IMG/VR virus record: IMGVR_UViG_3300022562_002256
Span: 64,001-128,000 of that record
Origin: a virus
Strand: one strand, 5' to 3'
DNA length: 64,000 bases
Below are positions 42,069 to 58,271 of the stretch, in pieces; positions within the stretch are counted from its first letter, which is position 1, and each line of letters opens with the position of its first letter. The notes below the pieces were generated by a model. The model was not told the DNA's origin, did no database searches, and saw nothing but the letters and a program-made list of their open reading frames with translations. The position numbers were made by a program, and so were the translations under genes.

Positions 42069-42230
42069 TCACTTGTCGGGTCGTTTCCCGCGGTAGGGCA
42101 GTCGCTTGACCTGCCTGATTGCCTTTTTGATGCGGCGGCGGACCCGCCGCCGGTCGCCAGGGTGCTTGAGTTTTGACGCCTCGCGCAAGGCGTCGATGAG
42201 GGCCGCGTACACGGCGTTGACGGTCTTCAT
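42069..42230 (-). CDS. Small basic protein (53 aa)
   Basis: ATG 14 nt after the -12 C of a sigma-54-like site. Confidence 0.6.
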   Translation of the reverse strand: MKTVNAVYAALIDALREASKLKHPGDRRRVRRRIKKAIRQVKRLPYRGKRPDK

Positions 42231-42242
42231 GCCCCGCTGTCT

Positions 42243-42258
42243 TGCACTGTCCGTGCCA
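42243..42258 (-). promoter_or_regulatory. sigma-54-like -24/-12 site TGGCAC-GGACA-GTGCA
   Basis: Exact motif, intergenic. Confidence 0.75.
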
Positions 42259-42370
42259 TCGTGGTGTGGTAGCCCCGCGGCGCGCTGGCCGTGTGTTGTC
42301 TTACGTGTGTGGATCGGGATCGATCCACGCCGCGTCAATGATTTCGAGCACTTGGCCGCGTCGGCTGGGC

Positions 42371-42473
42371 GTGGCATGTTGCCACGGTGTGGCAGACCGC
42401 CACACGTTGCAGAACCAGCACTCAGGTGGCTGCCAGCGCGCGACCCTGGAACGAATCCGTGGCAGAACGCCAC
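42371..42473. promoter_or_regulatory. Putative enhancer: core AGCACTCAGGTGGCTGCCA (42417-42435) plus three GTGGC-N5-GCCAC palindromes
   Basis: Palindromes at 42371, 42389 and 42459; core matches the 53774 copy with 1 mismatch and the 55692 copy with 2. Confidence 0.65.
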
Positions 42474-42574
42474 AACCAATACTGAACACCACCAAACCAC
42501 TGAATAAGACATGGACGAGCGGCGGAGCGCAGGGCGGGGCATGTGCTTCAAGCCCGTGCGCAAGAGGGCGAGGG

Positions 42575-42590
42575 TGGCACGGGTAGTGCA
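42575..42590 (+). promoter_or_regulatory. sigma-54-like site TGGCAC-GGGTA-GTGCA
   Basis: Exact motif; no ATG at the usual distance. Confidence 0.7.
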
Positions 42591-42759
42591 AGGCGTACGT
42601 TGTCCGTGCACCGGCCAGGAGTTGCGACCTTGTTCGCAACGTTTTAACGGTCGCGTATCCCGGTGTGATAGTCGAGGCTTGTTGGTAACAGCGAGACCTC
42701 GCTAGCCGCCCCGTCGTGCCCTACGGTTTCGGCGGGGGGGTAGTGATGCTCCCCCCAGG

Positions 42760-42775
42760 TGGCACAAGTAGTGCA
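42760..42775 (+). promoter_or_regulatory. sigma-54-like site TGGCAC-AAGTA-GTGCA
   Basis: ATG 42789 is 15 nt after the -12 C. Confidence 0.75.
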
Positions 42776-42788
42776 AGAAAACTTGAGC

Positions 42789-43328
42789 ATGCAGGCCCCC
42801 TCCGATGTCGTCTCCCCCTCCACTCATCCCTTCGAGCGTGCTGGGTTGGGCAAGGCGCCCTTCCGCTGCGTGGGGATGTCGGTCGAGCAGTACCAGGCGA
42901 TTCCGGGCGACCCGAGCTGCCCTATGCAGCCGGGCGCGTCGTGCGACTACTGCGGGCAGGGCATCATGCTTGTCTACCGCATCCAGGGTGTGGACGGGGC
43001 GAGGTTCAAGGTGGGGTGCGACTGTGTGCGGAAGACGGGGGACACGCGACTTGTCGCCCAAGCCTCCGACTTGGAGCGCAAGCATAACCGCGCGCTCGCG
43101 GCGTCGCGCAAGGCGAAGAAGCTCGCCAGCCGCGCAGAGCGCAACGCCGTCGAGCTGGCGGACGTGCTTGCCAGCCTCGACGAACTCGCTGGCCACCCCG
43201 CTGTTAGCCAGTGGGGGCGGGGCTTCGCGCAGGACGTGGCGAAGCGCATCCGGGCGGGGAAGATGGGCGCTCTCAGCACACCGCAAGCCCAGACCCTTGC
43301 GAAGCTCAGGGGCGAGGTGGGGCCGTGA
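42789..43328 (+). CDS. Phage Zn-binding hypothetical protein
   Basis: HPFERAGLGKAPFR, CDYCG, FKVGCDCV. Confidence 0.7.
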   Translation: MQAPSDVVSPSTHPFERAGLGKAPFRCVGMSVEQYQAIPGDPSCPMQPGASCDYCGQGIMLVYRIQGVDGARFKVGCDCVRKTGDTRLVAQASDLERKHNRALAASRKAKKLASRAERNAVELADVLASLDELAGHPAVSQWGRGFAQDVAKRIRAGKMGALSTPQAQTLAKLRGEVGP

Positions 43329-43579
43329 CGGCTCGCTTAGAACGCAGCCCCCATCGGGCCAGAGCACGCAAGTCCGGGCGCTACACCGCTAGCCCGCTGT
43401 GTGACGCGTGTGGCAAGCCGTGCGGAACGGCTTACTTCACAGACGACGAGGTCTGTGGGGGCACGGACGGCCCTGGGTTTTTCCTGTACGAGCGGCGTTC
43501 GTGTATTGTGGCACGTAGCTTGCCGGTGGAGGAGCGGCGGGCGCTGTACACCCGCATGCGCGCCTTGCAGGAGAACTGA
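43325..43579 (+). CDS. Hypothetical protein
   Basis: CDACGK; GTGA coupling. Confidence 0.55.
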   Translation: MTARLERSPHRARARKSGRYTASPLCDACGKPCGTAYFTDDEVCGGTDGPGFFLYERRSCIVARSLPVEERRALYTRMRALQEN

Positions 43580-43580
43580 G

Positions 43581-44525
43581 ATGAGACTCGCACTACCAGA
43601 TACCGCGCTGCCCGTTGACGAGATCGTCGTGGCTACGTTTGATCTTACCGACGTCGCCGTAGACGGCGGGCACCCCACGGTCGAGGAGATCGTCGATCTC
43701 GCTCTTGACCCGTACCAAGAGGTAGATATCCCGGACGGGAGCGTTCTCGCCGAGTCGGTCGAGCAAGACGAGGTGGTGCGTTTTGTGCGTGACGCGCACG
43801 CGCTCGGCGCGCGAGGGGTGCACCATCTTCTCGCTCGGATCGAGTCCTATGCACCACCCCCGCTCCCTCTCGAGTCGGTCGAGCCAGCCCTACCCGTGGC
43901 TCTGGCATCCCCGCAGCCCCCTCGTCCGCCGGTGCCTGACGCGGAGCTTGATGATCGCCTCGCGGCATGGAGGCGAGCCCTGCAAGGAGGCGACACGGTG
44001 GGGGCGCTTCGTGCGTGGCGGGCACTGCGTGCCGGCGCGACTGACCCTCCCTGGGAATACCTCGGACCCACGCCGGGGTATCGGGCGTGGGCGGACGCCG
44101 CTGCGCGAGTGTCTCAGCCCCACTACGGTGGGACCACGCGCGTCGATGAGGACGGGTATGAGGAGCACACCACAGGGTGGTGTGAGGGGGGCACCAACCC
44201 CATCCCGTCCGACTGGGTCGTCGATGGGTACGAACATAACTACCGATGGTATGGGGGCAGTTCGTCGGGGGAGCGCCGGCGGTCTCTTGAGGCTGTGGCA
44301 AGAGCCGCGAGGTGGCGGGCTGCACTGCCGACGGCGATAGCCGAGCCAGGGGCGGAGGCGTTTTTCGCCACCCTGCCCATGGACGAGCTCGGCGGTCCTC
44401 CCTACACCGATGCTATCGGGGTAATGGAGGGGCGCGCCCTCCAGGGGCGCGGTCGACGTTGGAAGCCACCGCCGAACGTGGTGGGGGCTATTGCGATTCT
44501 TAGAGGAGAAAGAGGAGGAGTGTAA
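43581..44525 (+). CDS. Hypothetical protein
   Basis: SD AGGAG. Confidence 0.65.
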   Translation: MRLALPDTALPVDEIVVATFDLTDVAVDGGHPTVEEIVDLALDPYQEVDIPDGSVLAESVEQDEVVRFVRDAHALGARGVHHLLARIESYAPPPLPLESVEPALPVALASPQPPRPPVPDAELDDRLAAWRRALQGGDTVGALRAWRALRAGATDPPWEYLGPTPGYRAWADAAARVSQPHYGGTTRVDEDGYEEHTTGWCEGGTNPIPSDWVVDGYEHNYRWYGGSSSGERRRSLEAVARAARWRAALPTAIAEPGAEAFFATLPMDELGGPPYTDAIGVMEGRALQGRGRRWKPPPNVVGAIAILRGERGGV

Positions 44526-44526
44526 C

Positions 44527-44826
44527 ATGAGATACGCTGGAGAGGTCGACGGGCAGAGGGTAACGATCGGTCAGCAGGCGTTGGTCGCGGTGTTGGTCCC
44601 CGCCTACCCCGTTTGTGGGGCGAGCGGGCGGATTCGCGACGTCGCGGCGATCGATGTGCGCCCGGCGGTGATTGAGACGGTGACACCCCTCACCCTGCGC
44701 GACTCGCGGGGCGAGGTGCACGAGGCTTTCCGGTACGAGGAGCCCGTCGTGAGGGATGGGTGCATCGCGATGGAGGGAGGTACGTGGTGTTGGCCCCCTT
44801 TCGCCCAGTCTTGCCGCAAGGCGTGA
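44527..44826 (+). CDS. Hypothetical protein
   Basis: SD GGAGGAG. Confidence 0.6.
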   Translation: MRYAGEVDGQRVTIGQQALVAVLVPAYPVCGASGRIRDVAAIDVRPAVIETVTPLTLRDSRGEVHEAFRYEEPVVRDGCIAMEGGTWCWPPFAQSCRKA

Positions 44827-44955
44827 GCGATAGCCGACAGGCTGGGCCAGAAGCCTCCCATCCATCTATAACGCCGACACGCGCAGACGCTTGGAGCTCG
44901 ACGGATGGGAGGCAGCTCTTCTTAGTGTTTTCCCAAGCCTCTCGCAAGCCGCGGC

Positions 44956-44992
44956 TTGACTCTCGCTCATGGTAGTGATATCACTACCATGA
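44956..44992 (+). promoter_or_regulatory. Promoter TTGACT-N17-TATCAC overlapped by a perfect 26-bp palindrome
   Basis: TCATGGTAGTGATATCACTACCATGA at 44967-44992 covers the -10 box and ATG. Confidence 0.75.
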
Positions 44993-45459
44993 TGAGCAAG
45001 GACACGCTGCGCCTCACTCGACAGGCCCAACACCTCAGTCGTGCGGCGCTGAGCAAGACGACCGGGGTACACCCAACGCTGGTCTTCAACGTCGAGACCG
45101 GGGCGCAGCCGATGCCCGGCCGGTACGTCGGTGCATGGGCTGATGCCCTGCACCTGCCTCGCGAAGCGGTCGAGCGCTACGTTGGCGGCGCCGTCAAGCT
45201 GTACGGCCTCACGGCGCATCAGCGCGCGTTCGTTAGCAAGTTGGTGGACCTACTCGCGTGGGGTGGCGAGGAACTCCGGGGGGAGCCGTTGCTGCCGACG
45301 CTGGAGCCCGACGGAGCCGCGGAATTGGACCATATCGCGAGGTTGTCCGACGCTGAGGTGGACGAGGAGTTGCTAGGGCGCAACCTGGAGCCGGCTGAGG
45401 TGCGCGCTCTTGGCGAGGAGTTTGTCACTAAGGCACTGATGGATCGGCTGCGCCCATGA
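44989..45459 (+). CDS. XRE-family HTH regulator
   Basis: LRLTRQAQHLSRAALSKTTGVHPTLVFNVETG..WADAL. Confidence 0.75.
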   Translation: MMSKDTLRLTRQAQHLSRAALSKTTGVHPTLVFNVETGAQPMPGRYVGAWADALHLPREAVERYVGGAVKLYGLTAHQRAFVSKLVDLLAWGGEELRGEPLLPTLEPDGAAELDHIARLSDAEVDEELLGRNLEPAEVRALGEEFVTKALMDRLRP

Positions 45460-45650
45460 GACCACACCACCACCCCTCGGGGGGTAGACCCATCGACTCA
45501 AGCCCCACCTACGTCGCCTGTTCGCTGTGTGGCAAGGCCACCACGGTGCGCGTCGGTGAGGTGCCGCTACCTGTTCGACACGCGGCTTGCCACGAGGCGT
45601 TCATGCGCACTCGAACGCCCACAGGGCAGCCGAAAAGGGCCCATCGATGA
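45456..45650 (+). CDS. Small Zn-finger protein
   Basis: CSLC, HAAC. Confidence 0.45.
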   Translation: MRPHHHPSGGRPIDSSPTYVACSLCGKATTVRVGEVPLPVRHAACHEAFMRTRTPTGQPKRAHR

Positions 45651-46141
45651 CTCAGTTCACGCCAAACGACGCGCAGTGGTGCATCGACTGCGGCGAGATG
45701 GAGGCGTCGAGCCCCGCTGGGCGTTGTCGTGATTGCGACCATTCCTACCTGTTCGCCGCGGGGTCGTGTCGCGAGTGCCTGCGTTGGATCATCCGCGAGG
45801 ACATCGGCGGCCCTGCAGCCGACCAACACGCGGTGCCATGCACCTTGCGCGCGAGCGGCGCCGACTGCTATCCGCGTGACGAGGCGGAGAACCTCCTCAT
45901 CCGGCAACGCAAGGGCTACCCGGGTGTGCCACCGCTGTCGCTCACCTACCCTGCACCCACCGCCACCCGGGCCGAAGTCGACGCGTGGTACAAAGCGCAC
46001 GCGCCACCACCGGAGCCCCCTCACGAGGCGCCGCCGGTCGCAAACGGGCCGTCGCCCGTGTGCTCGGCGTGCGGAGTGGTTAGGATCAAGGCACTCGGCC
46101 CTCCGTTCTGCGAGGGGTGCCGTCGGAGCATGGATATATGA
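45647..46141 (+). CDS. Cys-rich hypothetical protein
   Basis: Several CxxC pairs. Confidence 0.55.
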   Translation: MTQFTPNDAQWCIDCGEMEASSPAGRCRDCDHSYLFAAGSCRECLRWIIREDIGGPAADQHAVPCTLRASGADCYPRDEAENLLIRQRKGYPGVPPLSLTYPAPTATRAEVDAWYKAHAPPPEPPHEAPPVANGPSPVCSACGVVRIKALGPPFCEGCRRSMDI

Positions 46142-47043
46142 ACGACACAGCAACGTCGACGACCACCCCCGAGCTCGAGTCAGCGCGCCGGGTGCTCGCC
46201 GCACTGAGGGCCTACGACGACGCGGGCCATGACCCAGGCTCGATGGAGGACCGTATGGCCCTGGCCGTCGTACTACGCGCACTCGACGGTCACGATGCGG
46301 GGTACATCTTTGGGTTCGACGCGGTGCTTAACGGCAGAACGCCCGTCGCCGAGGCACCACCATCCACCGGCCGCACATTGCCGCCGCCGACCGAGGCAGA
46401 AGCGCGCGCGATCGTGGCGGCGAGGTGTGACGATGGGGTTTCGAGGCCGGATGGGTGGCTGGAGTCGCTCACCGAGTCCCTCATGGCCGCGTGGCGCGAA
46501 CCCCAGAACCAGGCAGACATCCGCATCCTCCGGGCGGGTATCGCCATCGGAAGAGCCCGCGCGATGGCATCGCGCGGCAGGACCGAGTCGCCGGGCAAGT
46601 CCATGCCAGCGGTGCCCCATGAGCTCGATGAGCAACTTGCCGACATGCTAACGCCACAAGACCTCGGCGATGGTGGCGTGGTTCAGCTCGACCCGACCTA
46701 CGTGCGCGCTGTGGGGGTCGTGCTCAAGGCTATCGTAGGTCCAGATACGGGCATCCCAACCCCGGTGCTGTACGCCACGCCCGAGGCCACCATCCGGGCA
46801 GAGTGGTCGATTCGGCCGCGAGATGTTGTTGTGGATATCGGCCCGGCAGCCGGCATGAACATCACTGATGGGGTTGCCATCCACGCGTTTGCGGTCGACG
46901 TTGCCCCACCTGGATCAGTTGACGAGGCGACGTTCAGTTTGCCTCACGATCGTGGGGTTGAGCCGGTGGTCGAGTGGCTGCGTAGGTGGGTTATTCCACC
47001 TACGCCGAAGGGGTCGACGGGCGGCACACCGGAGGCACCATGA
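46138..47043 (+). CDS. Hypothetical protein
   Basis: ATGA coupling. Confidence 0.6.
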   Translation: MNDTATSTTTPELESARRVLAALRAYDDAGHDPGSMEDRMALAVVLRALDGHDAGYIFGFDAVLNGRTPVAEAPPSTGRTLPPPTEAEARAIVAARCDDGVSRPDGWLESLTESLMAAWREPQNQADIRILRAGIAIGRARAMASRGRTESPGKSMPAVPHELDEQLADMLTPQDLGDGGVVQLDPTYVRAVGVVLKAIVGPDTGIPTPVLYATPEATIRAEWSIRPRDVVVDIGPAAGMNITDGVAIHAFAVDVAPPGSVDEATFSLPHDRGVEPVVEWLRRWVIPPTPKGSTGGTPEAP

Positions 47044-47345
47044 GCGTACCTTACACCATCTGCATGCCACAACACACAGCAGCGGAGTTCTGGCGGATCA
47101 TTCACAGATGCCAGGGGGGCCCGGCGGCGCTTTGTTCTGCGCTGTGCGCGCTCCTCGGCGACCGCGTGACCGACACTCTCGTGCGGGAGGCCAAGAAAGG
47201 GTGCTGCATCCGCGTGGTGACCGAACCACCGGCCACCCGCGTAAACGCACACAACTTCGACCCGTGGACGACGCCGGAAGCCGTAGCTTGTGGTGTCATC
47301 GACCTCGTCCAGCCGTGGCAGGAGGTTGAGGTGACGGTCGCATGA
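47040..47345 (+). CDS. Hypothetical protein
   Basis: SD GGAGG. Confidence 0.55.
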   Translation: MSVPYTICMPQHTAAEFWRIIHRCQGGPAALCSALCALLGDRVTDTLVREAKKGCCIRVVTEPPATRVNAHNFDPWTTPEAVACGVIDLVQPWQEVEVTVA

Positions 47346-47887
47346 CGTGCCACCACAAGACCATCCACGACCACTCCACGCTCACCGAAACGCACGAGCG
47401 CATCTGGCGGTGTTCGTGCTGCGGGCAAGATGCGCCGTGGACGGACGGGTGGATCTATGTCGGCACGGTCAAATGCCGGCGGTGCGAATACGGGCGCGTC
47501 GAAAGCGTGGCGTGTCCTCACTGCGCACCAGCGTTGGAGGCTGCTTGCGACGCGGCGGCATCCGCCCGCCGGACCAGGACGGTTCTCCCCTGGCAGCGCC
47601 AAGCTCGACTCGCCGGATGGACACCGCCCAAGTCGGCATGTCCGCCGACGCCGAGGGTACACCACGAGCGCCCAGGATGGAATTGCCCGAGCTGCCACCG
47701 CCGGGGGCCAAGAGTCGACTGCGCTCGATGCTGTCTCAAGGCGACCGAGCACACCCGCGCGACCGGGGGCGCACACGCGATTGACGGGCATGTCGCCGGT
47801 CCGCTGGCCGAGTGCCCAGCGTGCTCACCCCGCCGCCCACCACCGAAACCGCGCTCACCCCTTGCCGACCCAGAGGAAACCCCATGA
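47342..47887 (+). CDS. Zn-binding protein, tandem paralog A
   Basis: HKT..DHS..ER.WRC..CG..W.DGW...C.RC.Y..V.SVACP.CAP. Confidence 0.7.
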   Translation: MTCHHKTIHDHSTLTETHERIWRCSCCGQDAPWTDGWIYVGTVKCRRCEYGRVESVACPHCAPALEAACDAAASARRTRTVLPWQRQARLAGWTPPKSACPPTPRVHHERPGWNCPSCHRRGPRVDCARCCLKATEHTRATGGAHAIDGHVAGPLAECPACSPRRPPPKPRSPLADPEETP

Positions 47888-48465
47888 AGTGCGGGCACAA
47901 AACTCTCAAGGACCACTCGCGGCTTTCCAAGGGTACTGAACGGCTGTGGCGATGCACGCACTGCGGTCGGGAGGGGCCATGGGCCGACGGCTGGGCCTAC
48001 TTCGGCAACATTGAGTGCCTCCGGTGCGGCTACGCCCAAGTCGATAGCGTCGCGTGCCCCACGTGCGCACCGGGCCAGATGGCGCCGGGACCGCCGTCCG
48101 CGCCACCCCAGCCTCGACCAAGGCGGGAACCCGCTTGGCAGCGCAAGGCCCGACTCGCAGGCTGGGCGCCACCTCAACCACAGCCGGACACGCCCGATGC
48201 CCGCCGCGCACCACACGCCGAAACGGGGACGGTGCACATCCGTGTGTCGCGCGAGGTCCACCAGGCGATGCAACAGCTCTACCAACGCCACGGGTCGGAC
48301 CAGTTGGCGCTAATCAGCGCCATGCACAAACTACTCGGTGACGTCGCCGCCGAGTACGTTCTCAGCGCGAACGTCATCGGCGCCAGCCCTCGAGTGGTCG
48401 TGGATCCGACGCTACACGGGGGCCACGCGGTGGTCGTCAGTCGGGGGGCGGTGGTCGCGAGGTAG
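47884..48465 (+). CDS. Zn-binding protein, tandem paralog B
   Basis: Same N-terminal domain as 47342..47887. Confidence 0.7.
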   Translation: MKCGHKTLKDHSRLSKGTERLWRCTHCGREGPWADGWAYFGNIECLRCGYAQVDSVACPTCAPGQMAPGPPSAPPQPRPRREPAWQRKARLAGWAPPQPQPDTPDARRAPHAETGTVHIRVSREVHQAMQQLYQRHGSDQLALISAMHKLLGDVAAEYVLSANVIGASPRVVVDPTLHGGHAVVVSRGAVVAR

Positions 48466-48470
48466 CCGCA

Positions 48471-49250
48471 ATGACGAGACAAGGCATGGGCAGCACACTG
48501 GAGTCGTTTCTGTCCGGCGCCGACCACCACGCCGATTGCGTGTGCTGGGATGTTGAGGACGCCAACTGGGAGTCGTGGTGCGACTGCGGCTTGACCGAGT
48601 ACAGCAACCTGCTGCGCACAGCGCCCCCCAGGTTCGAAGACGCGGTTGAGGAGCTGTTCGACGCGTGGGCCCACGCGCACACCTCGGACCAAAAGCGAAG
48701 CCTGAACTTACTATGTGCGCAGATTTACTCTGCCATCCGCGAGTGGGAGCGAGTCGCCGGCCTGGGACCACTGATGCACCGCATCGATGGCCGCAAGCTC
48801 GGCAATGCTTTCCGGGGGCACCAGCCCAAGAGACGCCCCGGGTCGGTCGACGGGGACATCGGCCCCAGAGCCGCCGCTGGCCCCAACCCTCGCGACGACC
48901 ACCCCGCGCTCGCCGGTCAGTCCGCGACGCCTGCAGTGTCACTACCACGCTGCCGGTTCTGCCAACGCCCGTGGCAACCGCCACCCGGGGTCAACGCGGA
49001 CGTGGCATACTGCCAGGCGTGCTCGCCGGAGCGCCGCGCAAAAGCCGCCGCGGTGTTCGGCAACGACGGCAAGCGCGAGGTGCTCGTCGGCGGCAAGTAC
49101 CTGATCCGGGTGCCTGCCGCCACCACCGCCCCACGGTCCCCGAACGCTGCCACGACGTCGCCCACAGCGGGCCCGTCCCCCGACGGAGCCACCCCAGTGG
49201 CCAGCGGCGACCAAACCGCCACCGCGGCCCCACCACGGCCCCGCAAGTAG
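48471..49250 (+). CDS. Hypothetical protein
   Basis: CRFC and CQAC; operon context. Confidence 0.55.
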   Translation: MTRQGMGSTLESFLSGADHHADCVCWDVEDANWESWCDCGLTEYSNLLRTAPPRFEDAVEELFDAWAHAHTSDQKRSLNLLCAQIYSAIREWERVAGLGPLMHRIDGRKLGNAFRGHQPKRRPGSVDGDIGPRAAAGPNPRDDHPALAGQSATPAVSLPRCRFCQRPWQPPPGVNADVAYCQACSPERRAKAAAVFGNDGKREVLVGGKYLIRVPAATTAPRSPNAATTSPTAGPSPDGATPVASGDQTATAAPPRPRK

Positions 49251-49263
49251 GCACCGCACGCCC

Positions 49264-50307
49264 ATGCCCTGCCCCGTATGCCAACACCCCGCCCTAGACG
49301 AGATCAATCGGCGACTCGCAGCCGGCGACAGCCTCCGATGTATGGCGCGGGAGTATGGCTTCAACGGCCACGTCGCCCTCCACCGCCACCGCCACGGATG
49401 CCTGGCGAATACCGCCACGTCATCGACCCCGCCGGCCGACCAGGCGCCCGAGCCCACCGCCACCGCCACAGGAACCATCTCACAAATAGAGCCAACCAGA
49501 AACAGCGTTCCTGCCGTTTCCGATCCGTCCAGAAACGCCGAGGAAACACCGCGAAACGCGGTGAGGCACGCTAACTCTCCAGGGTTTACCGTGTCGACCA
49601 TGCTGAAGGGTTCTCCGTTTCAGCGAGTAGCTGATGCGCCGGTCGCGGGGCGGAAGGAGATATGGGCTGTGCTCGAGCCGGAGTGCCTTCGGCTCCGCCT
49701 TCGGGGCATGGGGTACGAGGACATCGCCATCAAGCTCGGATGGCATCCCAACGACGTCAAGACCGCGGTCGAGCGCGCGCTGGCCAAGACTCGCCGCGGC
49801 CTCAGTGCCAACGCTGACGGCGTGCGCGCGCTGGAGATCGCGCGACTCGACCGGCTGATGGAGGCCCTGTGGGAGCGCGCGGTCCCGGCCCAAGGCGCCC
49901 ACGGTGACCAAGAGGCCAAGACATCGACGGGGGCGGGTGTGCCCTTCAAGGAGCAGCATCGCGCGATCGAGCTTGTCGTGAAGCTCATGGAGCGGCGGGC
50001 CAAGTACGAGGGGCTCGATGTCCACACCGGTCCGAGCACGGTCGTGAACGTGCTCCAGGCGGACGGTGTGCGCGAACTCGTGAGCACCATCCGGGCGTAC
50101 ATCCAACAGGAGGCGCCGAGCGTCCTTCCTGGCCTCGATCGCCATCTGCGGCACGCCATGCTCCAACGCAAGGCAGCCGCGTTGGGAGTGACGGTGCTCG
50201 ATGGGCCGGCGGGTGATGGGTCCACGGTGGTGATCGATGGCGCGGGCGTCGAGGTGACTGGCACGCCGGCGCTTTCGCCGCCATCGGAGGATGGCGAGGA
50301 CACGTGA
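49264..50307 (+). CDS. Terminase small subunit-like protein (two HTH modules)
   Basis: CPVCQHP..INRRL..G.SLR.MAREYG; LRLRGMGYEDIA.KLG; LEIARLDRL; MERRAKYEGLD; upstream of TerL. Confidence 0.65.
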   Translation: MPCPVCQHPALDEINRRLAAGDSLRCMAREYGFNGHVALHRHRHGCLANTATSSTPPADQAPEPTATATGTISQIEPTRNSVPAVSDPSRNAEETPRNAVRHANSPGFTVSTMLKGSPFQRVADAPVAGRKEIWAVLEPECLRLRLRGMGYEDIAIKLGWHPNDVKTAVERALAKTRRGLSANADGVRALEIARLDRLMEALWERAVPAQGAHGDQEAKTSTGAGVPFKEQHRAIELVVKLMERRAKYEGLDVHTGPSTVVNVLQADGVRELVSTIRAYIQQEAPSVLPGLDRHLRHAMLQRKAAALGVTVLDGPAGDGSTVVIDGAGVEVTGTPALSPPSEDGEDT

Positions 50308-50543
50308 GTTACGCTGACCTGAGTGCACGGATCGCCGCTCTCTCCGACGAGGATCGCCGCATCGTCGAGGCGCTGCTGGCGTACCTGCCGGCGGGGAGCA
50401 TGGGCCGATTCCTCGCGATGCGAGACGCGCGAAGGGCGGAGCATGGCGGCGCCGGGCCCGCACCCATGAGGAGCGAGGGGCCAGAGGCATACGACGCGGT
50501 GACGGTGTACCGCGCGATCGAGGTGCTCCGGAGGCGCGAATGA
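50304..50543 (+). CDS. Hypothetical protein
   Basis: GTGA coupling. Confidence 0.5.
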   Translation: MSYADLSARIAALSDEDRRIVEALLAYLPAGSMGRFLAMRDARRAEHGGAGPAPMRSEGPEAYDAVTVYRAIEVLRRRE

Positions 50544-50576
50544 GCCTCCGGAGCCGGCTCATCCAGAGAGGCGCGC

Positions 50577-52247
50577 ATGCCGGTGCGTAGAGGCGGCGGC
50601 GTGGCCTTGCAAGACGCGTGGATGGCTGAGGTGCCCATGGACCCGTTCTGCGACGTCGTGGGGTTGTTCCTGAGCCTGGGCGAGGCCGAGTCGCCACCGA
50701 CGGAGGTGCGCGCGCCCTATGAGGAGTACCACGACGACCCGGTCGGGTTCGCGGGCGACGTGCTTGGGATGGAGCCGTGGGAGCGGGAGCCGACCATGCC
50801 AGCGGAGGTGGCATCCCAAGCGGACGTGCTCCGAGCGGTGGCAAAGTACCGGCGCGTAGCGGACAAGAGCGGCCAGAAGACGGGCAAGAGCAGCCTCGCC
50901 GCCGTGGCAGCGCTGTGGTGGGTGTACACCCGGGTCCAGGGTTATGTCGTGCTGACAGCCCCGTCGGCGCCCCAGGTGGATGCGATCCTGTGGACGGAGA
51001 TACGCCTGGTGGCGCAGGGGCACCACCCGACACAGCGGGCCAAGGGGTTCGTCCCCAAGCTGCCAGGTGTGAACGGCGAGCCGGGGGGGCGTCTTTATGA
51101 GAGCGCGAGCCACGGATTGTCGCTGGGGGATGGGTGGGGCATCACGGGCCGGACCACGGACAAGCCCGAGCGGATGCAGGGGCCGAGCGGGGCCAATCAG
51201 TTCTATATCGTTGACGAGGCGAGCGGCTACTCGGAGGCCAACCTGCAGGCGATTCTTGGCAACCTGGCGGGCGGAGGCCACATCCTGATGCTCAGCAACC
51301 CGACCCAGGTGACCGGGACGTTCTTCGACGCGTTCCACGACAAGGCCGAGGTGTGGGAGACGTTCTCGCAGTCGTCGTTGCACACGCCGAACTTCCACGG
51401 CAAGTGCATCCCGGGGCTCGCCGACGCGGACTACGAGCGGCTGGCCAAGGTCGACTGGGGCGGCCCCGGCAACCCGATGTTCGATGCCCGTGTCCTTGGC
51501 CGCTTCCCGAGCGCGGGGGCGATGGTCGTGGTGCCCCTCTCCCTGGTCGAAGCGGCGAAGGCGCGGTGGGCAGAAGCTCCGTGGGAGGGGCGCCTCGAAG
51601 TGGGGTTGGACCCGAGCCGCGGCGGCGATGAGTGCGTCTATGTGTTTCGACGTGGGCTCAAGGTGGCGATGCCCGTGCCAGTCCATGTGGATGCCAACGA
51701 TGTCGAGGTGCCACCCGGTTGGCAGGTCGGCGCGGCGGTGGCGCGCGCGGTGCTCGAAGAACACGCCCTGCATCCCCATCCGGAAAAGCCGAGGGTCAAG
51801 GTTGACGCCATCGGGGTCGGGACAAGCGTGGTGGACTACCTCATGGCGAAGCATCGCCATGATTTTGACGTGATCGCGGTGGTGAGCAGCGGCGAGGCGA
51901 GTCCCCGCGTGCAGGTGCGACCCGGGCGCACGGCCAAAGATGAGTACACCAACCTGCGTTCCCAGATCGCGTTCGGCGTTCCCGAGTTCTTGCGGGCCGG
52001 CGGTGCTCTTCCGCCCGACGGCAAACTCCACGGCGACCTGGTAGCGGCGAAGTACAAGTTTGTCGGCGAGAAGACCGCGGTTGAGGAAAAGAGAGAGATC
52101 ACCAAGCGACTGAGGAGGTCGCCCGACCGGGGCGACGCCGTGGGACTGGTGATCTACGTGCCAGCCGGGCGGCGCTCGCCGCCGGCGCCCCCCGTCAAGC
52201 CACCCCCTCTGCAGTGCTTCCCCGCGGGGGCAATGGGGTGGGGTTGA
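50577..52247 (+). CDS. terL: Terminase large subunit
   Basis: SGQKTGKS, TAPSAPQV, IVDEASG, LSNPT, GLDPSRGGDE, VDAIGVG, SPDRGDA. Confidence 0.9.
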   Translation: MPVRRGGGVALQDAWMAEVPMDPFCDVVGLFLSLGEAESPPTEVRAPYEEYHDDPVGFAGDVLGMEPWEREPTMPAEVASQADVLRAVAKYRRVADKSGQKTGKSSLAAVAALWWVYTRVQGYVVLTAPSAPQVDAILWTEIRLVAQGHHPTQRAKGFVPKLPGVNGEPGGRLYESASHGLSLGDGWGITGRTTDKPERMQGPSGANQFYIVDEASGYSEANLQAILGNLAGGGHILMLSNPTQVTGTFFDAFHDKAEVWETFSQSSLHTPNFHGKCIPGLADADYERLAKVDWGGPGNPMFDARVLGRFPSAGAMVVVPLSLVEAAKARWAEAPWEGRLEVGLDPSRGGDECVYVFRRGLKVAMPVPVHVDANDVEVPPGWQVGAAVARAVLEEHALHPHPEKPRVKVDAIGVGTSVVDYLMAKHRHDFDVIAVVSSGEASPRVQVRPGRTAKDEYTNLRSQIAFGVPEFLRAGGALPPDGKLHGDLVAAKYKFVGEKTAVEEKREITKRLRRSPDRGDAVGLVIYVPAGRRSPPAPPVKPPPLQCFPAGAMGWG

Positions 52248-52333
52248 CGTCATCCGTTGGTGTTGCTGGTTCGGGCGGTTTCGGGTCTCAGCCCGGGGAT
52301 CCGCCATCCCATCGGCGTGGTCCGTAAGGATCG

Positions 52334-52356
52334 AAAGGTGACGCCACGTCACTTTT
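52334..52356. terminator. Probable bidirectional intrinsic terminator
   Basis: AAAGGTGACG-CCA-CGTCACTTTT between convergent genes. Confidence 0.6.
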
Positions 52357-52476
52357 CACGGGCGAGTCCTACTCGACGGCCGGAGCGTCCGTGGCCCAGA
52401 CTTTGATAGGGCTGCCGTTATCGGCAACCACGATGGGGCGGCGGAGTGGCGGTGTCGTGCCTCCGCCACTGGTTGG

Positions 52477-53160
52477 TCACCAACCCACTTCCACAACTCG
52501 CTGAAGAGTCGCGACGATGCTCTTGTGATATTTTTGCATCGCCCCGGGCACCCCGCGTCCGGTGACGATCGCCTCTCCAAGGAGCATGCCTGCAAGCAGG
52601 TAGGCGCGCTGCAGCCAAGTGTGCCCGTACGCATCCCATGCCGCCCACGGCACGGCCTCCGCCTCCGCGTAGGTCATCGGGCACGGGCTATCCTCCCCCT
52701 CACGCACAGCGAGAATCCATTGGCGGAGAGGCTCAAGGTACGGTGGCGAACACAGCATGCCCGGCAGCATGCCCCGCGCAGCCTCAAGATCCCCCGTCAG
52801 CGGATCGAGGAGCCCCACGCACACAGCCTCAGTGACCATGCGATGCACCGAGTCGGAGTAGCGAACATTGTGGTGACGCGGATGGCGCGTGCCGCCCACA
52901 TACCACTCACCCATGGGGCCGAGGGGTGCATCCACGCTCCCCTCACGGTCGCGCCCCTCGCGCGCTCGGCACGGAAACCCGAGCCAAGCAGCGAAATCGG
53001 CGACAAGGTCGACGGGCACCCCGAGGTCGGACTGCATCACCTCGCATCCATCTGGCTCAAGGGTGGGCATGCCCACCCTTCCGAGCACCTCATTGAGCGC
53101 ATCGAGCCGGTCGCCAGGCGGTGTAAGAAACCGGAACTCAATTCGGTACCAGTTGCTCAT
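52477..53160 (-). CDS. Hypothetical protein
   Basis: Start MSNWYRIEF; ATGA coupling. Confidence 0.65.
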   Translation of the reverse strand: MSNWYRIEFRFLTPPGDRLDALNEVLGRVGMPTLEPDGCEVMQSDLGVPVDLVADFAAWLGFPCRAREGRDREGSVDAPLGPMGEWYVGGTRHPRHHNVRYSDSVHRMVTEAVCVGLLDPLTGDLEAARGMLPGMLCSPPYLEPLRQWILAVREGEDSPCPMTYAEAEAVPWAAWDAYGHTWLQRAYLLAGMLLGEAIVTGRGVPGAMQKYHKSIVATLQRVVEVGW

Positions 53161-53381
53161 GGTGAACCCAATTCCGCTCGTCGCGCGGCCACGAAAACCT
53201 CCAACCAAGTCGCTCCGACCGCGAGGCGCGTGACGCTCCGCTCGCCGGTGTTGCGCCAAAGCGTCGCGCGGCCATTGGTCCGCTGCGCGTAGGCACCGTC
53301 GCCGAACAACCTCTTTGCAACCATGGTCGCATCTCGGACACTTAGCCGGTTCACTCTGGCTGCCTCCGCCGCACTGATCAC
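53157..53381 (-). CDS. Hypothetical protein
   Basis: GTG start with GAGG SD. Confidence 0.5.
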   Translation of the reverse strand: MISAAEAARVNRLSVRDATMVAKRLFGDGAYAQRTNGRATLWRNTGERSVTRLAVGATWLEVFVAARRAELGSP

Positions 53382-53397
53382 TTGTGCCCTCAGCTTC

Positions 53398-53583
53398 TTA
53401 GGCGTTGAGGATGGCGGCTTCGGCCGCGGCGAAGTGGGTGGTGGCTTCGATGCGCCACTCGGCGAGGATGCTGCGGTCGACGTACCCGTCGGCGAAGCCG
53501 GCGAGGCTGTTGATGATGTCCATCGCCTCATCGAGGTCACGGCCGATGGCGTCGAGTTTCTCATTGCGGGCTGCGTCGTTCAT
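53398..53583 (-). CDS. Small helical protein
   Basis: ATG 14 nt after the sigma-54-like -12 C. Confidence 0.65.
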   Translation of the reverse strand: MNDAARNEKLDAIGRDLDEAMDIINSLAGFADGYVDRSILAEWRIEATTHFAAAEAAILNA

Positions 53584-53595
53584 GTCCGGCCGTCT

Positions 53596-53611
53596 TGCAC
53601 GCATCGTGCCA
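53596..53611 (-). promoter_or_regulatory. sigma-54-like site TGGCAC-GATGC-GTGCA
   Basis: Exact motif. Confidence 0.75.
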
Positions 53612-53715
53612 AGGTGGTGGGGCGCAAAGCGGACTTCCCACGCCTCGCGTTTGCGGCACGTTTCGGGGCGAACAGCACGCACCGCCGATTCTGGACTATC
53701 ATCCCAGCGCGCAAA

Positions 53716-53828
53716 CGTTTGCGCGTCGATTTTGCCAGGTTGGTGAATCCGCTCACGGTGGCACGCACGATCTAGCACTCAAGTGGCTGCCATCAGGCGC
53801 CGGTAAATTCTGCCGGCTAAACGCAAGA
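53716..53828 (+). repeat. Left arm of a ~113-bp imperfect inverted repeat (contains the enhancer core)
   Basis: Reverse complement of 55655-55768; core ACGATCTAGC(A/G)CTCAAGTGGCTGCCATCAGG(C/T)GCCGGTAAATTCTGCCGGC; 18-bp palindrome CGCGCAAACGTTTGCGCG at 53708-53725. Confidence 0.9.
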
Positions 53829-53965
53829 AGTGCGCGGGCGGTGGGGCGTGAGGATGGCACGGCGCGGGGGTGGCGGCGTGACCCCTGACGCACGGGTGCG
53901 TTAATCTGCGGCGATTTGCGATCGAGCGCCGCTCAACCGCCACCCCCGCGCCGTGCCGCTCGCCG

Positions 53966-53981
53966 TGGCACGGTTAGTGCA
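53966..53981 (+). promoter_or_regulatory. sigma-54-like site TGGCAC-GGTTA-GTGCA
   Basis: ATG 53994 is 14 nt after the -12 C. Confidence 0.75.
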
Positions 53982-53993
53982 TTATTGTCGGTC

Positions 53994-54191
53994 ATGAACC
54001 GCCCCGCGAACCTCGCCGACGCCCGTCAGACCTACCGCGCCCTCCGCCTTGCCACCACCCGCCACACGGCGGCCGATTTTGATGATCTCGCTCGGTCTAT
54101 TGCTAGCGAACTCGCCGACGGTGAGGACATCACCCCGGGGCTATGGGTAGATGCCGCTTATATCCTCCACAGCGGCCGAGACTACGCATGA
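53994..54191 (+). CDS. Small hypothetical protein
   Basis: MNRPANL; leaderless spacing. Confidence 0.6.
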   Translation: MNRPANLADARQTYRALRLATTRHTAADFDDLARSIASELADGEDITPGLWVDAAYILHSGRDYA

Positions 54192-54419
54192 AAGACGCCA
54201 CGTCATCCGGGCTGCCTTGCGGCGCCCGCTGGACGCCAATTGCAGGCGGTCACCCAAGGCGGTTACAGCCTCGCCAACCGCAGTGAACGTGGTCGTAGGG
54301 TACTTCTCAAGTAACCACTTGAGTTGCTCGGAGGTAGTGCGACCCCGCGTGCCGCCGTGGAGGTAGAATTTATAGAGCGCTCGCGCGAGATCATCGAGCG
54401 CTGCTGAGTTCACCGTCAT
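54141..54419 (-). CDS. Small hypothetical protein
   Basis: MTVNSAALDD; ATG 16 nt after the -12 C. Confidence 0.55.
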   Translation of the reverse strand: MTVNSAALDDLARALYKFYLHGGTRGRTTSEQLKWLLEKYPTTTFTAVGEAVTALGDRLQLASSGRRKAARMTWRLSCVVSAAVEDISGIYP

Positions 54420-54433
54420 GGTCGCCGTCGCTA

Positions 54434-54449
54434 TGCACGCTGCGTGCCA
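54434..54449 (-). promoter_or_regulatory. sigma-54-like site TGGCAC-GCAGC-GTGCA
   Basis: Exact motif. Confidence 0.75.
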
Positions 54450-54509
54450 TGGTGAAGGATACCGCATCTGCCTTGCGCATGGGTCGCAGCGCTCCGCCAT
54501 GGTGAAGGA
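54446..54509 (+). repeat. 14-bp exact direct repeat GCCATGGTGAAGGA x2
   Basis: At 54446 and 54496, between divergent sigma-54-like sites. Confidence 0.75.
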
Positions 54510-54521
54510 ACGGTCGCCGGG

Positions 54522-54537
54522 TGGCACGGCTCGTGCA
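54522..54537 (+). promoter_or_regulatory. sigma-54-like site TGGCAC-GGCTC-GTGCA
   Basis: ATG 54550 is 14 nt after the -12 C. Confidence 0.75.
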
Positions 54538-54549
54538 AGACGGGCAGGC

Positions 54550-54801
54550 ATGACGACCACCAAACAGACCACGGCGGAAAAGTTCGCGACAGCGTGGGCG
54601 GAGTCCGTTCGCACCAACAGCCCGCTCGACGAGATGGGCATCGATCTCCTCGCCGATACCAAGAACAGGGTCGGCGTGTTCCCCGACGGCAGCGCCGTCG
54701 TGCTCCTCTACATCACCAGCGAAACTGGTTTCGCTGGTGCCGCCGTGGTCGCCAAAGCATCCGAGGCCGACGCCCGCGCTGCGCTGGCGGCCAACATCTG
54801 A
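54550..54801 (+). CDS. Small hypothetical protein
   Basis: MTTTKQTT. Confidence 0.65.
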   Translation: MTTTKQTTAEKFATAWAESVRTNSPLDEMGIDLLADTKNRVGVFPDGSAVVLLYITSETGFAGAAVVAKASEADARAALAANI

Positions 54802-54808
54802 GGACGCC

Positions 54809-55666
54809 ATGAGCACCCATCCCACACCCAAAATCACCAGGCAGGAAGTCCGCTGGATCCCGCTGCCGGACAGCAAAACGATTGACGTCTCGGGTCGCCC
54901 CGCGCGACTCTGGACGCTCTACGGCCCCGGTCGCGATGACCCGGCCGTGCCGCCCCAACTGCCCATCACCCCGGTCCATCACCATGGGGCATTCCTAGAG
55001 GACGAGACGCACGACTGGATCGTGCGCGGCAATACCCTGCGGTACTTCAGTCGCGTCACAGACCGAGGGACATGGGTGTTGCTCGAGTACGAGGATGCCC
55101 CTCCCCTCCCTTCCACCTCGTCGTCCACCCCCCTCACGCTTTCGGGACTCCTCGCCGCCGTAGAAACCGCGCGCGGCAACCGACAAGCTGCCGCGCGCGC
55201 CCTTGGCCTGCCGCTGCGTACATTCCACCGCCGCGTCGACGAGCTCGGCAGGGAAGCGGTCGACGAGTTGACCGCTCGTCTGGCTGCCGACGGACGCCTC
55301 GATTCTGCCACACGCCGCGGCACCGGGCACGCCCACAGCGCGCTCGCCGTACGGCAGGCATGGGATGCCCATCCGACTAACCGCGAGGCCGCCGCGCGGG
55401 CGCTGGGGGTGTGCGTTCGGGTGGCACTCCGGCTGGCCAAGCGCCACGGAGTCCATGTGCCGCGACCACCACGCTCAGCCACGTCACCGTGCCCCACAGT
55501 GGATTTCGTCTGCGCTCAATGTGGTGCGCGTCACCCGCGAGCGTGGCCGTCGCACAGCCTTCAGTGTCCGGCATGTGGCGGCGATGCATTCCGGCAAGGG
55601 GTGACAGCCCCGGGCGGCGACTCTGACTTGAGGCCGCCCGCGCCCCCATGCAAGTCTTGCGCTTAG
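54809..55666 (+). CDS. Regulator with two Fis-type (HTH_8-like) HTHs and a C-terminal Zn ribbon
   Basis: AVETARGNRQAAARALGLPLRTFHRRVDELG; TNREAAARALGV; CAQC and CPAC; no Walker A or GAFTGA motif. Confidence 0.75.
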   Translation: MSTHPTPKITRQEVRWIPLPDSKTIDVSGRPARLWTLYGPGRDDPAVPPQLPITPVHHHGAFLEDETHDWIVRGNTLRYFSRVTDRGTWVLLEYEDAPPLPSTSSSTPLTLSGLLAAVETARGNRQAAARALGLPLRTFHRRVDELGREAVDELTARLAADGRLDSATRRGTGHAHSALAVRQAWDAHPTNREAAARALGVCVRVALRLAKRHGVHVPRPPRSATSPCPTVDFVCAQCGARHPRAWPSHSLQCPACGGDAFRQGVTAPGGDSDLRPPAPPCKSCA

Positions 55667-55768
55667 GCCGGCAGAATTTACCGGCACCTGATGGCAGCCA
55701 CTTGAGCGCTAGATCGTATGCAAGGTCGTGACCAACTTCACCAACTCGCCAAAATCGACGCGCAAACG
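55655..55768 (-). repeat. Right arm of the inverted repeat (contains the enhancer core)
   Basis: Matches 53716-53828; the ORF track shows DLALKWLPSGAGKFCR in both. Confidence 0.9.
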
Positions 55769-55864
55769 GTGCGTTGCTTCTCTCCGACCCGGGGTGCTGC
55801 CCCGAGCAGGCATCATGCAGCGACACGTGACCCCCATTTGGTACTCGCCACGCCCTGCAGCCTG

Positions 55865-55880
55865 TGGCACGGTGCGTGCA
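55865..55880 (+). promoter_or_regulatory. sigma-54-like site TGGCAC-GGTGC-GTGCA
   Basis: ATG 55894 is 15 nt after the -12 C. Confidence 0.75.
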
Positions 55881-55893
55881 TACGATCTCCGCC

Positions 55894-56127
55894 ATGCTCA
55901 TGCTCGCCGACCGAATCGCAAATATAGTCATGACCATCCACGCCGACCCCGCCGCCTGGCTGCTGGAGGCGCGTCGCCTCTGCGACCGGGCGGGGTTGTC
56001 GCCTGCACGCGCGATTGTCCTTCCCGGGACGCTTGCGGCGGTGGCGCGAGCCATCGTCGAGGAAGCACAGAAGCAAGGGCGCTTCCAGCAGCTCGATGCT
56101 GCTGTGACCGCCATGGAGCAGCCATGA
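55894..56127 (+). CDS. Small hypothetical protein
   Basis: Leaderless spacing; ATGA coupling downstream. Confidence 0.6.
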   Translation: MLMLADRIANIVMTIHADPAAWLLEARRLCDRAGLSPARAIVLPGTLAAVARAIVEEAQKQGRFQQLDAAVTAMEQP

Positions 56128-56558: not shown

Positions 56559-56938
56559 GCACGCAATTCGCGGTGGGTGAAGAGGCCATCCTTCTGGAGG
56601 GCGGCAAGCCCGTGGCGGTTGTCGCCATCATCAAGGTCACCCCGGGGGGACTTGTTGACGCCACGACGGGGTGGAATAGCCAAACCGAACGATGGAACGC
56701 CGATGGGTCTCCCCGCGGTAGCAGCTACCGTGGCTTCAGGTTACGCCGACTCGTGGTGCCTACCCCGTCACTCCGCGGGGAGGCCATCGCGAACACACAG
56801 CGCGCCGCGGTGCGGAAGGCGCTGGATGCGCTATCGAAGGCGACAATGGACGTTCTGCCGGCTGATGTGCTCCCCGATGTCATCCAGCACCTCGATGCCG
56901 CCATCGCCGCCATCGGGTCACGAGCGAGCAATGCGTGA
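56555..56938 (+). CDS. Hypothetical protein (paralog of 56124..56558)
   Basis: W..DG..RG..RRLV.PTP. Confidence 0.65.
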   Translation: MSTQFAVGEEAILLEGGKPVAVVAIIKVTPGGLVDATTGWNSQTERWNADGSPRGSSYRGFRLRRLVVPTPSLRGEAIANTQRAAVRKALDALSKATMDVLPADVLPDVIQHLDAAIAAIGSRASNA

Positions 56939-58271
56939 GATCATCGTTGACTGCTTCGCCGGCGGCGGTGGTGCCTCAACCGGAATCGAGCAGGCGCTCG
57001 GGCGGTCGCCGGACATCGCGATCAACCATGATCCAGAAGCCGTGGCGATGCATGCGGTCAACCATCCGGCGACGACGCACCTCTGCGGTGACGTCTGGGA
57101 CGTGAAGCCGCTTGACGCGACCCGGGGGCGACCGGTTGGGCTGCTTTGGGCCTCGCCAGACTGCAGACACTTCAGCAAGGCGAAGGGCGGTAAGCCGGTT
57201 GAAAAGCGCGTTCGGAGCCTCGCCTGGGTCGTTGTGAGGTGGGCGCGCGAGGTGCAACCGCGTGTGATCTGTCTCGAAAATGTCGAGGAGTTCGCCGACT
57301 GGGGCCCGCTCGTCGATGGGCGCCCGTGTCCTCTCCGAAAGGGCTTCACCTTTCGCCGCTGGGTCAAGGCTCTGGAGAAGGCCGGTTACCTTGTCGAGAC
57401 GCGCGATCTGCGCGCCTGCGACTTCGGGGCACCGACGATCCGCAAGCGCCTCTTCGTGGTCGCGCGCCGTGACGGGCTTCCCGCGGTCTGGCCAGCAGCG
57501 ACCCATGGCCGCGGGCTCCTCCCATACCGCACCGCGGCGGATTGCATCGACTGGAACATCCCTTGCCCGTCGATCTTCGATCGCAAGAAGCCGCTCGCCG
57601 CCAAGACGTTGCGCCGGATCGCGCGAGGGGTCCAGCGATACGTCGTCGACTCGCCCCACCCGTTCATCGTCCCGGGCACCGAGCCCACACCACTCGCTCT
57701 CCCACTCCAAGAATCGCTTTTCACGAACACCGATGACCCCGCATCTGGCGACCACGCCGGCGTAAGCGCCTTCCTGACCGACTACCTTGGCGGCGAAAGC
57801 GATGTCGCGCCATCAAGGCTTGGGTTGCATGCCATCCGCCCCGGCGCGGCGACCGACGTCGATCTCGTCGCATCCAGCCTGGTTCTATTCCACGGGTCGC
57901 GACGCGATGGTCAACCTATCGAGCGACCACTCCCCACTGTACGTGCTGGCGGCATGCATATTGCAGAGGTTCGCGCCTTCCTGGGCAGGCTTCGCTACGA
58001 GCACTCTCTTGCGGGGGGCGCCCCCGTCGTGATGATCGGCGCTGAGCCATACGGGATCGTTGATATCGGGATGCGTATGCTTTCGCCACGCGAGCTTTAC
58101 CGGGCTCAAGGCTTCGATGACGGCCATGTGATCGACGTCGATGCGAACGGCAAACGCCTCACCAAGGAGGCACAGGTGCGGCTGTGCGGCAACAGCGTGG
58201 TCCCCGCCGTCGCTCGCGCGATCGTTGTGGCAAACATGACCATGACGATGGCCGCCACCACGGCCGCGTGA
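56931..58271 (+). CDS. C5-cytosine DNA methyltransferase
   Basis: DCFAGGGG, ASPDCRHFSKAKG, ENVEEF, RKRLF, CGNSV. Confidence 0.93.
   Translation: MREIIVDCFAGGGGASTGIEQALGRSPDIAINHDPEAVAMHAVNHPATTHLCGDVWDVKPLDATRGRPVGLLWASPDCRHFSKAKGGKPVEKRVRSLAWVVVRWAREVQPRVICLENVEEFADWGPLVDGRPCPLRKGFTFRRWVKALEKAGYLVETRDLRACDFGAPTIRKRLFVVARRDGLPAVWPAATHGRGLLPYRTAADCIDWNIPCPSIFDRKKPLAAKTLRRIARGVQRYVVDSPHPFIVPGTEPTPLALPLQESLFTNTDDPASGDHAGVSAFLTDYLGGESDVAPSRLGLHAIRPGAATDVDLVASSLVLFHGSRRDGQPIERPLPTVRAGGMHIAEVRAFLGRLRYEHSLAGGAPVVMIGAEPYGIVDIGMRMLSPRELYRAQGFDDGHVIDVDANGKRLTKEAQVRLCGNSVVPAVARAIVVANMTMTMAATTAA

Follow-up and report, generated by a model that had tools for sequence, protein, structure and literature searches.

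A 64,000-bp stretch of viral DNA, hereafter the window (bases 64,001–128,000 of the 198,045-bp IMG/VR record IMGVR_UViG_3300022562_002256, which has terminal repeats and is rated complete), was analyzed for a recurrent 16-mer, TGGCAC-N5-GTGCA. Analysis of the whole record, referred to as G000, indicated that these 16-mers are very probably sigma-54-type promoters. It is likely that they are fired by the RpoN polymerase of the host through host enhancer-binding proteins (EBPs) acting on two families of non-coding cassettes, A and B. Coordinates without a prefix are window positions, and those of the whole record are marked G000; other G-numbers denote IMG/VR phage records and L-numbers denote stretches of such records.

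Putative sigma-54-type promoters in G000

The window contains eight exact copies of the 16-mer, at 42243–42258 (−), 42575–42590 (+), 42760–42775 (+), 53596–53611 (−), 53966–53981 (+), 54434–54449 (−), 54522–54537 (+), and 55865–55880 (+), all at the coordinates and on the strands given in a preliminary description of the window. Exact sites averaged 0.06 per shuffled window and never exceeded one (n = 100). An ATG was also said to follow the C of the GC element by 14–16 nt, and this was observed at seven of the eight sites: the distance is 14 nt at 42243, 53596, 53966, and 54522, 15 nt at 42760 and 55865, and 16 nt at 54434, with 42575 as the exception. Three sites (42243, 53596, and 54522) continue with GTGCAAGAC, and a variant site at 58286–58301 (+) differs at two positions (C at −26 and A at −15) and has its ATG at 16 nt, opening a 72-aa open reading frame (ORF); both observations agree with the earlier account. 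The set of sites described there is real but was undercounted, as the genome holds 40 exact sites (0.15–0.2 expected from Markov simulations) and 68 relaxed sites (7 for a reversed-pattern control).

The GG and GC elements are exactly 10 nt apart, as in the TGGCAC-N5-TTGC(A/T)-like consensus, and the 16-mer matches the published form yTGGCACG-n4-TTGCw (PMC12754779) except for a G at −15. Forty sites in G000 have a spacer of 5 nt and one has any other spacer from 3 to 7 nt, and no single-base variant at GG or GC occurs. The sites are directional and intergenic. An ATG lies 12–17 nt past the C of GC at 29 of 40 exact sites, compared to a background of 8% (p = 2e-23), and 14–15 nt past it at 25 of them, with no ATG peak on the opposite side; the distance to the transcript start, as read from the sequence, thus appears to be fixed. 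The constant spacer, the invariant GG and GC, and the one-sided ATG argue for the promoter assignment. Exact sites cluster before small orphan genes and are absent from G000 60–100 kb (replication genes) and 180–198 kb (head and tail). The leaderless proteins encoded behind the sites gave no Pfam match.

A dimeric phage repressor, for which the 16-mer with its quasi-palindromic inner part would be the operator, had been named as an alternative. The phage encodes helix-turn-helix (HTH) proteins, and the commonest form of the 16-mer is palindromic at its core, with G at −20 paired to C at −16. However, an operator of this kind would show two-fold symmetry and no fixed direction, whereas the outer positions of the 16-mer are absolutely asymmetric, its fully symmetric form does not occur in G000, its halves do not covary, and the ATG keeps to one side and to a fixed distance. 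The same geometry is also found in unrelated phages and in host promoters, and no tyrosine integrase was found in G000. Such an operator is therefore a very improbable explanation of the sites; the 16-mer may act as an operator in a second role.

G000 also encodes three sigma-70-family factors: one with regions 2 and 4 at 13556–14608 (+), in a region nearly free of sigma-54 sites, a second at 31491–32246 (+), and a third at G000 22641–23429. The presence of these genes raises the idea that one of their products reads the motif. However, the motif lies 13–28 nt before the putative start rather than at −35/−10, one of the sigma genes is itself located behind the motif, and four other motif-bearing phage records, although incomplete, gave no Sigma70_r2 match. 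Among the explanations considered here, this is the most remote.

Predicted transcription start and leaderless mRNAs

The preliminary description placed the transcription start about 12 nt past the C of GC, but the sequence evidence favors 14–15 nt. In phage G135, a pyrimidine–A step is found at 13/14 in 19 of 20 sites (p = 6e-18), and it holds irrespective of what comes next, be it an ATG, a Shine–Dalgarno sequence, or a 3-nt leader. An ATG at 14–15 nt was also present in 8 of 30 enhancer-linked promoters of Polyangia, of the type bound by the EBP NmpR. In G000, a cloverleaf-shaped RNA (G000 32527–32651; L002:13527–13651, −), which has a long variable arm and weakly matches the tmRNA model (E value, 4e-8, below the gathering score), starts 15 nt past a sigma-54-type site. 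Its end is consistent with a start at 15 nt but is no proof, because such RNA ends can be processed. The start thus probably lies 14–15 nt past the C, which would leave the majority of phage mRNAs with no leader at all.

The 20 sites of G135 (L218; G135:32000–45200) are co-oriented, and each precedes a gene of 55–190 codons with a 3-nt leader or an immediate Shine–Dalgarno sequence. Two ATG-less sites of G000, at 46937 (+) and 49733 (−) of the whole record, are followed by identical sequence from the putative start on, which suggests related small RNAs.

Duplicated non-coding cassettes

Self-comparison of G000 identified the two cassette families, which the preliminary description had missed together with the three sigma-70-family genes and a gene for a Fis-type HTH protein at 54809–55666. 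Cassette A is present in eight non-coding copies (~150 bp; 75–92% identity) and cassette B in four (~240 bp; 87–93% identity). The window carries one B copy (42270–42492, −) and two A copies (53680–53835, −; 55648–55776, +). Each of the 12 cassettes faces an exact site, and many are also backed by a second site in divergent orientation; 20 of the 40 exact sites lie within 450 nt of a cassette. Among the A copies, the palindrome arms described below are kept while spacers and flanks drift, and one B copy has retained the exact promoter distance despite replacement of its last 28 nt.

Two other interpretations of the cassettes were rejected. Cassette A as a structured RNA was dismissed with a double change in 1 of 27 pairs and no covariation, and matches to sigma-70 promoters and terminators showed no excess across 41.5–59.5 kb of the window. 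A third repeat family of four ~100-bp copies with 76–91% identity (window 52248–52348; G000 33789–33891, 172800–172900, and 190905–191009) is not tied to sigma-54 sites; an ATG stands at the end of three copies on one strand, and the family possibly represents a leader or antisense RNA, with no match in Rfam.

Cassette A and a possible NmpR-like activator

The palindrome GCGCA-N5-TGCG(C/T) is located at both ends of cassette A. Such palindromes occur 17 times in G000 with a spacer of 5 nt, compared to 2–3 times for spacers of 4, 6, or 7 nt, and three of the seven that stand alone outside the cassettes are upstream of a sigma-54 site (p = 0.008). The Myxococcus xanthus EBP NmpR binds GCGCA-N5-TGCGC, as determined by electrophoretic mobility shift assay and lacZ fusions; it acts via sigma-54, is hypoxia-induced and oxygen-responsive, and has a regulon that includes CBS, Usp, hemerythrin, and cbb3 oxidase genes (PMC11841059). 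Palindromes of the GCGCA-N5-TGCGC type with the GCA-N5-TGC core intact are likewise present in intergenic DNA of the phage, no more than 500 nt upstream of a sigma-54 site.

The combination of palindrome and promoter was found 215 times in 108 of 301 Polyangia-class genomes (the class of a Polyangiaceae metagenome-assembled genome, MAG), compared to ~29 times for the reversed control; in the first 201 of these genomes, 129 matches were obtained versus 27 for a control with the spacer lengthened by one. Ten sampled host targets comprised CBS (2), Usp (3), hemerythrin, NapC/NirT, NiFe hydrogenase, SulP, and DUF2933 genes and overlap the published NmpR regulon. Between its NmpR-type sites, cassette A contains a core shared with cassette B, which we take to resemble an IHF site, and a central dyad with two host matches at one mismatch. 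These results suggest that a low-oxygen signal of the host is received at cassette A through an NmpR-like protein. The earlier proposal of a link to a host EBP is supported by the NmpR consensus in cassette A, and the signal would be low oxygen, plus a second EBP, rather than specifically starvation.

Cassette B and its candidate activator

Cassette B contains three GTGGC-N5-GCCAC palindromes, an IHF-like site, and a further dyad, all at fixed distances, and 12 of the 13 matches to this palindrome in the genome are inside cassette B. Its tandem palindrome, with the same 3-nt gap, precedes sigma-54 sites in host genomes as well (50 matches versus 3 for the reversed control). One host tandem palindrome is located just after and one just before genes for EBPs of REC-AAA-Fis architecture, and one stands between divergent promoters, as in the phage. 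Host genes behind such sites include ferritin/Dps, BON, OmpA, and glutathione-synthetase-like genes. Separately, a GGATC-N6-GATCC dyad is found alone at G000 37346, between divergent sites at 37155 and 37425, and is a possible third binding site.

Host and transcription machinery

RpoN, EBP ATPase, and IHF/HU domains gave no match in the complete G000 (PF00158, PF04552, PF04963, and PF00216), so that the reported absence of rpoN and EBP genes from the window extends to the genome: a sigma-54 system of its own, with rpoN or an EBP AAA+ domain, is not encoded by the phage. The single-stranded DNA-binding protein (SSB) of G000 is 60–66% identical to the best Myxococcota SSBs and 34–45% identical to those of one genome each of Acidobacteriota, Planctomycetota, Gemmatimonadota, and Burkholderiaceae. 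The host is therefore probably a member of the Myxococcota, in agreement with the myxobacterial host assumed earlier.

The sigma gene at G000 22641–23429 lies behind a cassette A-flanked sigma-54 site, from which it is separated by a 24-codon leaderless ORF whose stop overlaps the sigma gene start. Since a cassette A site feeds a phage sigma-70-family gene, the sigma-54 tier may start a cascade, and the arrangement suggests a succession from host sigma-54 to a phage sigma factor. No distinct late-promoter motif that the phage sigma factors might read emerged from simple word counts. A region-4-like sigma domain is encoded at 49600–50307, in addition to the three sigma-70-family factors.

The 285-aa Fis-type HTH protein (54809–55666, +) is an orphan. 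It has the kind of DNA-binding domain found in EBPs (HTH_8) but lacks an AAA+ domain, and it has no homologues and no clear match in Atlas. It is a possible EBP mimic that could modulate the system. A non-canonical activator or adaptor of the phage, such as this protein or an orphan, might even bind the cassettes and fire or redirect host sigma-54 polymerase. In favor of this idea, a single HTH_8 match was obtained from 30 phage records, in G000 and within a sigma-54-headed unit, and Pseudomonas phage YuA has a promoter class believed to need a phage factor. However, the protein lacks the AAA+ domain and homologues, its own gene follows a promoter of this kind, its recognition helix is unlike those of the EBPs beside host B-type sites, and the cassette palindromes match host sites. 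One generic AAA protein of the phage was checked, and the GAFTGA loop was not seen in the stretch read. We consider a phage-encoded activator improbable.

Proposed model and its alternatives

In the model that we consider likely, an NmpR-like host EBP would bind cassette A when oxygen is low and, by looping, possibly with the help of host IHF, would open the flanking promoters, often a divergent pair. A second host EBP would act likewise at cassette B. The sites lie in front of small accessory genes and some RNAs and are kept out of the modules for replication and for head and tail. The cassettes would have spread by duplication, in the way known from T4-type phages. Sites without a cassette would presumably be opened from distant enhancers, from solution, or via sites that were not recognized.

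Several observations weigh against this model. Neither palindrome is found within 300 nt at about half of the sites. The other phages with arrays of such sites are almost without A or B palindromes; those of G135, G001, G002, and G003, which are leaderless, have at most one in the region read. G at −15 is present in 53 of 68 G000 sites compared to 12 of 61 host enhancer-linked promoters, where it is a tolerated but minority base; in five Myxococcota MAGs, the G(−15) form is not enriched (35 versus 61 in the control), whereas the T(−15) form is (24 versus 7). NmpR-bound promoters of M. xanthus carry paired sites 5–24 nt apart, mostly 14–15 nt (PMC11841059), but the good sites of cassette A are ~96 nt apart, with only degenerate look-alikes 5 and ~12 nt away from them, so that cassette A is better said to work like an NmpR regulon promoter than to be one. 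The host count for cassette B hardly passed a spacer control (26 versus 17), which leaves it a plausible but not an established enhancer. Furthermore, the cassette copies are non-independent observations, and the host assignment rests on one marker, SSB.

The sites lacking palindromes, the leaderless arrays of the other phages, the −15 G bias that separates phage from host enhancer-linked sites, and the atypical spacing in cassette A would all suit host sigma-54 promoters that fire without dedicated enhancers, either by EBPs from solution or through a low barrier helped by the −15 G. The cassettes would then mainly be mobile modules captured from a host promoter, similar to the promoter early stem-loop elements (PeSLs) of T4-type phages, and oxygen control would be minor. 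We regard this as unlikely. Canonical sigma-54 needs an EBP, and the conservation of palindrome arms against drifting spacers and flanks in copies of 75–92% identity, the stand-alone NmpR-type sites before three other promoters, and the promoter distance held by a cassette B copy across its 28-nt replacement are all at odds with it.

The housekeeping sigma factor and phage polymerases work without an activator, which is why one or the other normally transcribes phage early genes. If the model of host EBPs acting on the cassettes is true, an accessory programme on an activator-dependent polymerase, together with the copied host enhancer sites, would sense host physiology (oxygen) directly at transcription, and the arrangement suggests that the phage times its accessory genes to the state of the host. 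More tentatively, large myxobacterial phages might express a first gene tier (leaderless accessory genes by the dozen, small RNAs, and one of their own sigma factors) from host sigma-54 promoters via mobile enhancer cassettes that link it to two or more two-component activators of the host, including an oxygen sensor. Hypoxia or stress of the host would gate such a programme, and arrays of leaderless sigma-54 promoters would be a widespread, undescribed phage strategy; this wider proposal is a serious possibility that we stop short of calling likely. For M. xanthus, both nmpR-null and nmpR-ON strains have already been described, as has the purified NmpR protein. The arrangement would also provide a signal for host prediction of uncultured phages, and it draws attention to sigma-54 transcripts without leaders and to a start geometry of +14/15 in Myxococcota.

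Organization of the window and genome

Cassette B at 42270–42492 would serve the promoter at 42243, which heads a leaderless 53-aa ORF (42069–42230). Its palindromes are at 42371, 42389, and 42459 (−), the core common with cassette A at 42417–42432, the IHF-like site at 42340–42353, and a GGATC-N6-GATCC dyad at 42311–42326. The divergent promoter at 42575 heads a structured non-coding stretch, a candidate RNA at 42600–42758 (+) with a fold z of −3.4 and no Rfam match, and the next promoter, at 42760, heads a leaderless 179-aa ORF (42789–43328).

The first cassette A copy (53680–53835) comprises an NmpR-type site at 53821–53835, the central dyad at 53799–53817, the shared core at 53774–53789, and a second NmpR-type site at 53709–53724, which has a 6-nt spacer in this copy. 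It would serve the promoter at 53596 (leaderless 61-aa ORF, 53398–53583), and the divergent promoter at 53966 heads a leaderless 65-aa ORF (53994–54191). No recognized enhancer is within 300 nt of the promoters at 54434, which precedes ORF 54141–54419, and 54522, which heads a leaderless 83-aa ORF (54550–54801) followed by the Fis-type HTH gene. The second cassette A copy (55648–55776), with NmpR-type sites at 55648–55662 (degenerate) and 55760–55774, the central dyad at 55667–55685, and the shared core at 55695–55710, would serve the promoter at 55865. The leaderless 77-aa ORF behind it (55894–56127) is the first of a run that ends in a DNA cytosine methylase (56931–58271); an identical methylase is present in sequencing run SRR14699976. 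The only canonical TGGCAC-N5-TTGCA of the genome, at 1352–1367 (−), is inside the 3′ end of a RecD2 gene and has an ATG at 21 nt.

G000 encodes portal, protease, major head, sheath, baseplate, and tape-measure proteins and is thus a contractile-tailed phage. No close relative was found by a capsid search of IMG/VR and INPHARED or by a cassette A search against cultured phages, and the cassette core gave 14 single matches in IMG/VR, none extending beyond 19 nt. The DnaB helicase encoded at 21215–22825 aligns to its homologues in two pieces, which suggests that an insertion, for example a small intein, interrupts it. A transposase-like gene with IS1/IS66 DDE matches (L007:3611–4705, −) lies in an accessory region.

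Comparison with other phages and known systems

A scan of IMG/VR for the site pattern returned 59 stretches; because the pattern required one leaderless G(−15) site per record, only further sites per record are informative. Clusters were found in G135 (20 sites on one strand), G132 (18), G002 (16), and G160 (12), compared to 0–1 in controls, and the arrays of G135, G001, G002, and G003 are mostly leaderless. In the stretches compared, the phages with clustered sites have few proteins in common with G000. Among 27–30 phage records, the search for EBP and RpoN yielded three weak partial AAA-type matches, none of them clear. A different phage group (L220, G132:57000–72000, and also G139 and G167) has 18–20 sigma-54-like sites packed in non-coding DNA; many are overlapping inverted pairs without an ATG, and the group has a repeated cassette of its own. 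This may be another use of the motif.

The use of sigma-54 promoters by a phage and duplicated promoter cassettes are both already known, from YuA and from PeSLs, respectively. The sigma-54 promoters of YuA are reportedly three in number and located in the structural/lysis region. YuA uses host sigma-54 promoters, as G000 would (Ceyssens et al., 2008, cited in 10.1101/2023.10.13.562163), and one sigma-54-like promoter was assigned to it by cappable-seq (10.1101/2023.10.13.562163). Unlike YuA, with its few promoters on that account, G000 has 40–60, located before accessory genes and none in the head/tail module, with enhancer cassettes. The preliminary description knew of no such phage programme, which does not hold for sigma-54 use as such; in the literature searched, a limited library, neither a genome-wide sigma-54 programme nor host-EBP enhancer cassettes were found for any phage.

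The targets of NmpR (PMC11841059) and PexR (PMC12754779) resemble the G000 promoters in their GG-N10-GC elements with the consensus yTGGCACG and in interrupted palindromes 50–210 nt upstream. Cassette A carries the NmpR consensus (PMC11841059), and the three palindromes of cassette B recall the three repeats that suffice for PexR (PMC12754779). The G000 promoters differ from these in being on a phage, in having G rather than T at −15, in being mostly leaderless, in the distance between NmpR-type sites (~96 versus 5–24 nt), in lacking a recognized enhancer at half of the sites, and in being known from sequence alone. The PeSLs of the T4-type phages RB49 and phi1 are, similar to the G000 cassettes, duplicated non-coding elements scattered among small non-essential genes (PMC2839356). 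However, PeSLs combine constitutive sigma-70 promoters with terminator stem-loops (PMC2839356), a combination that the G000 cassettes do not have, whereas the latter appear to be enhancer-like sigma-54 arrays.

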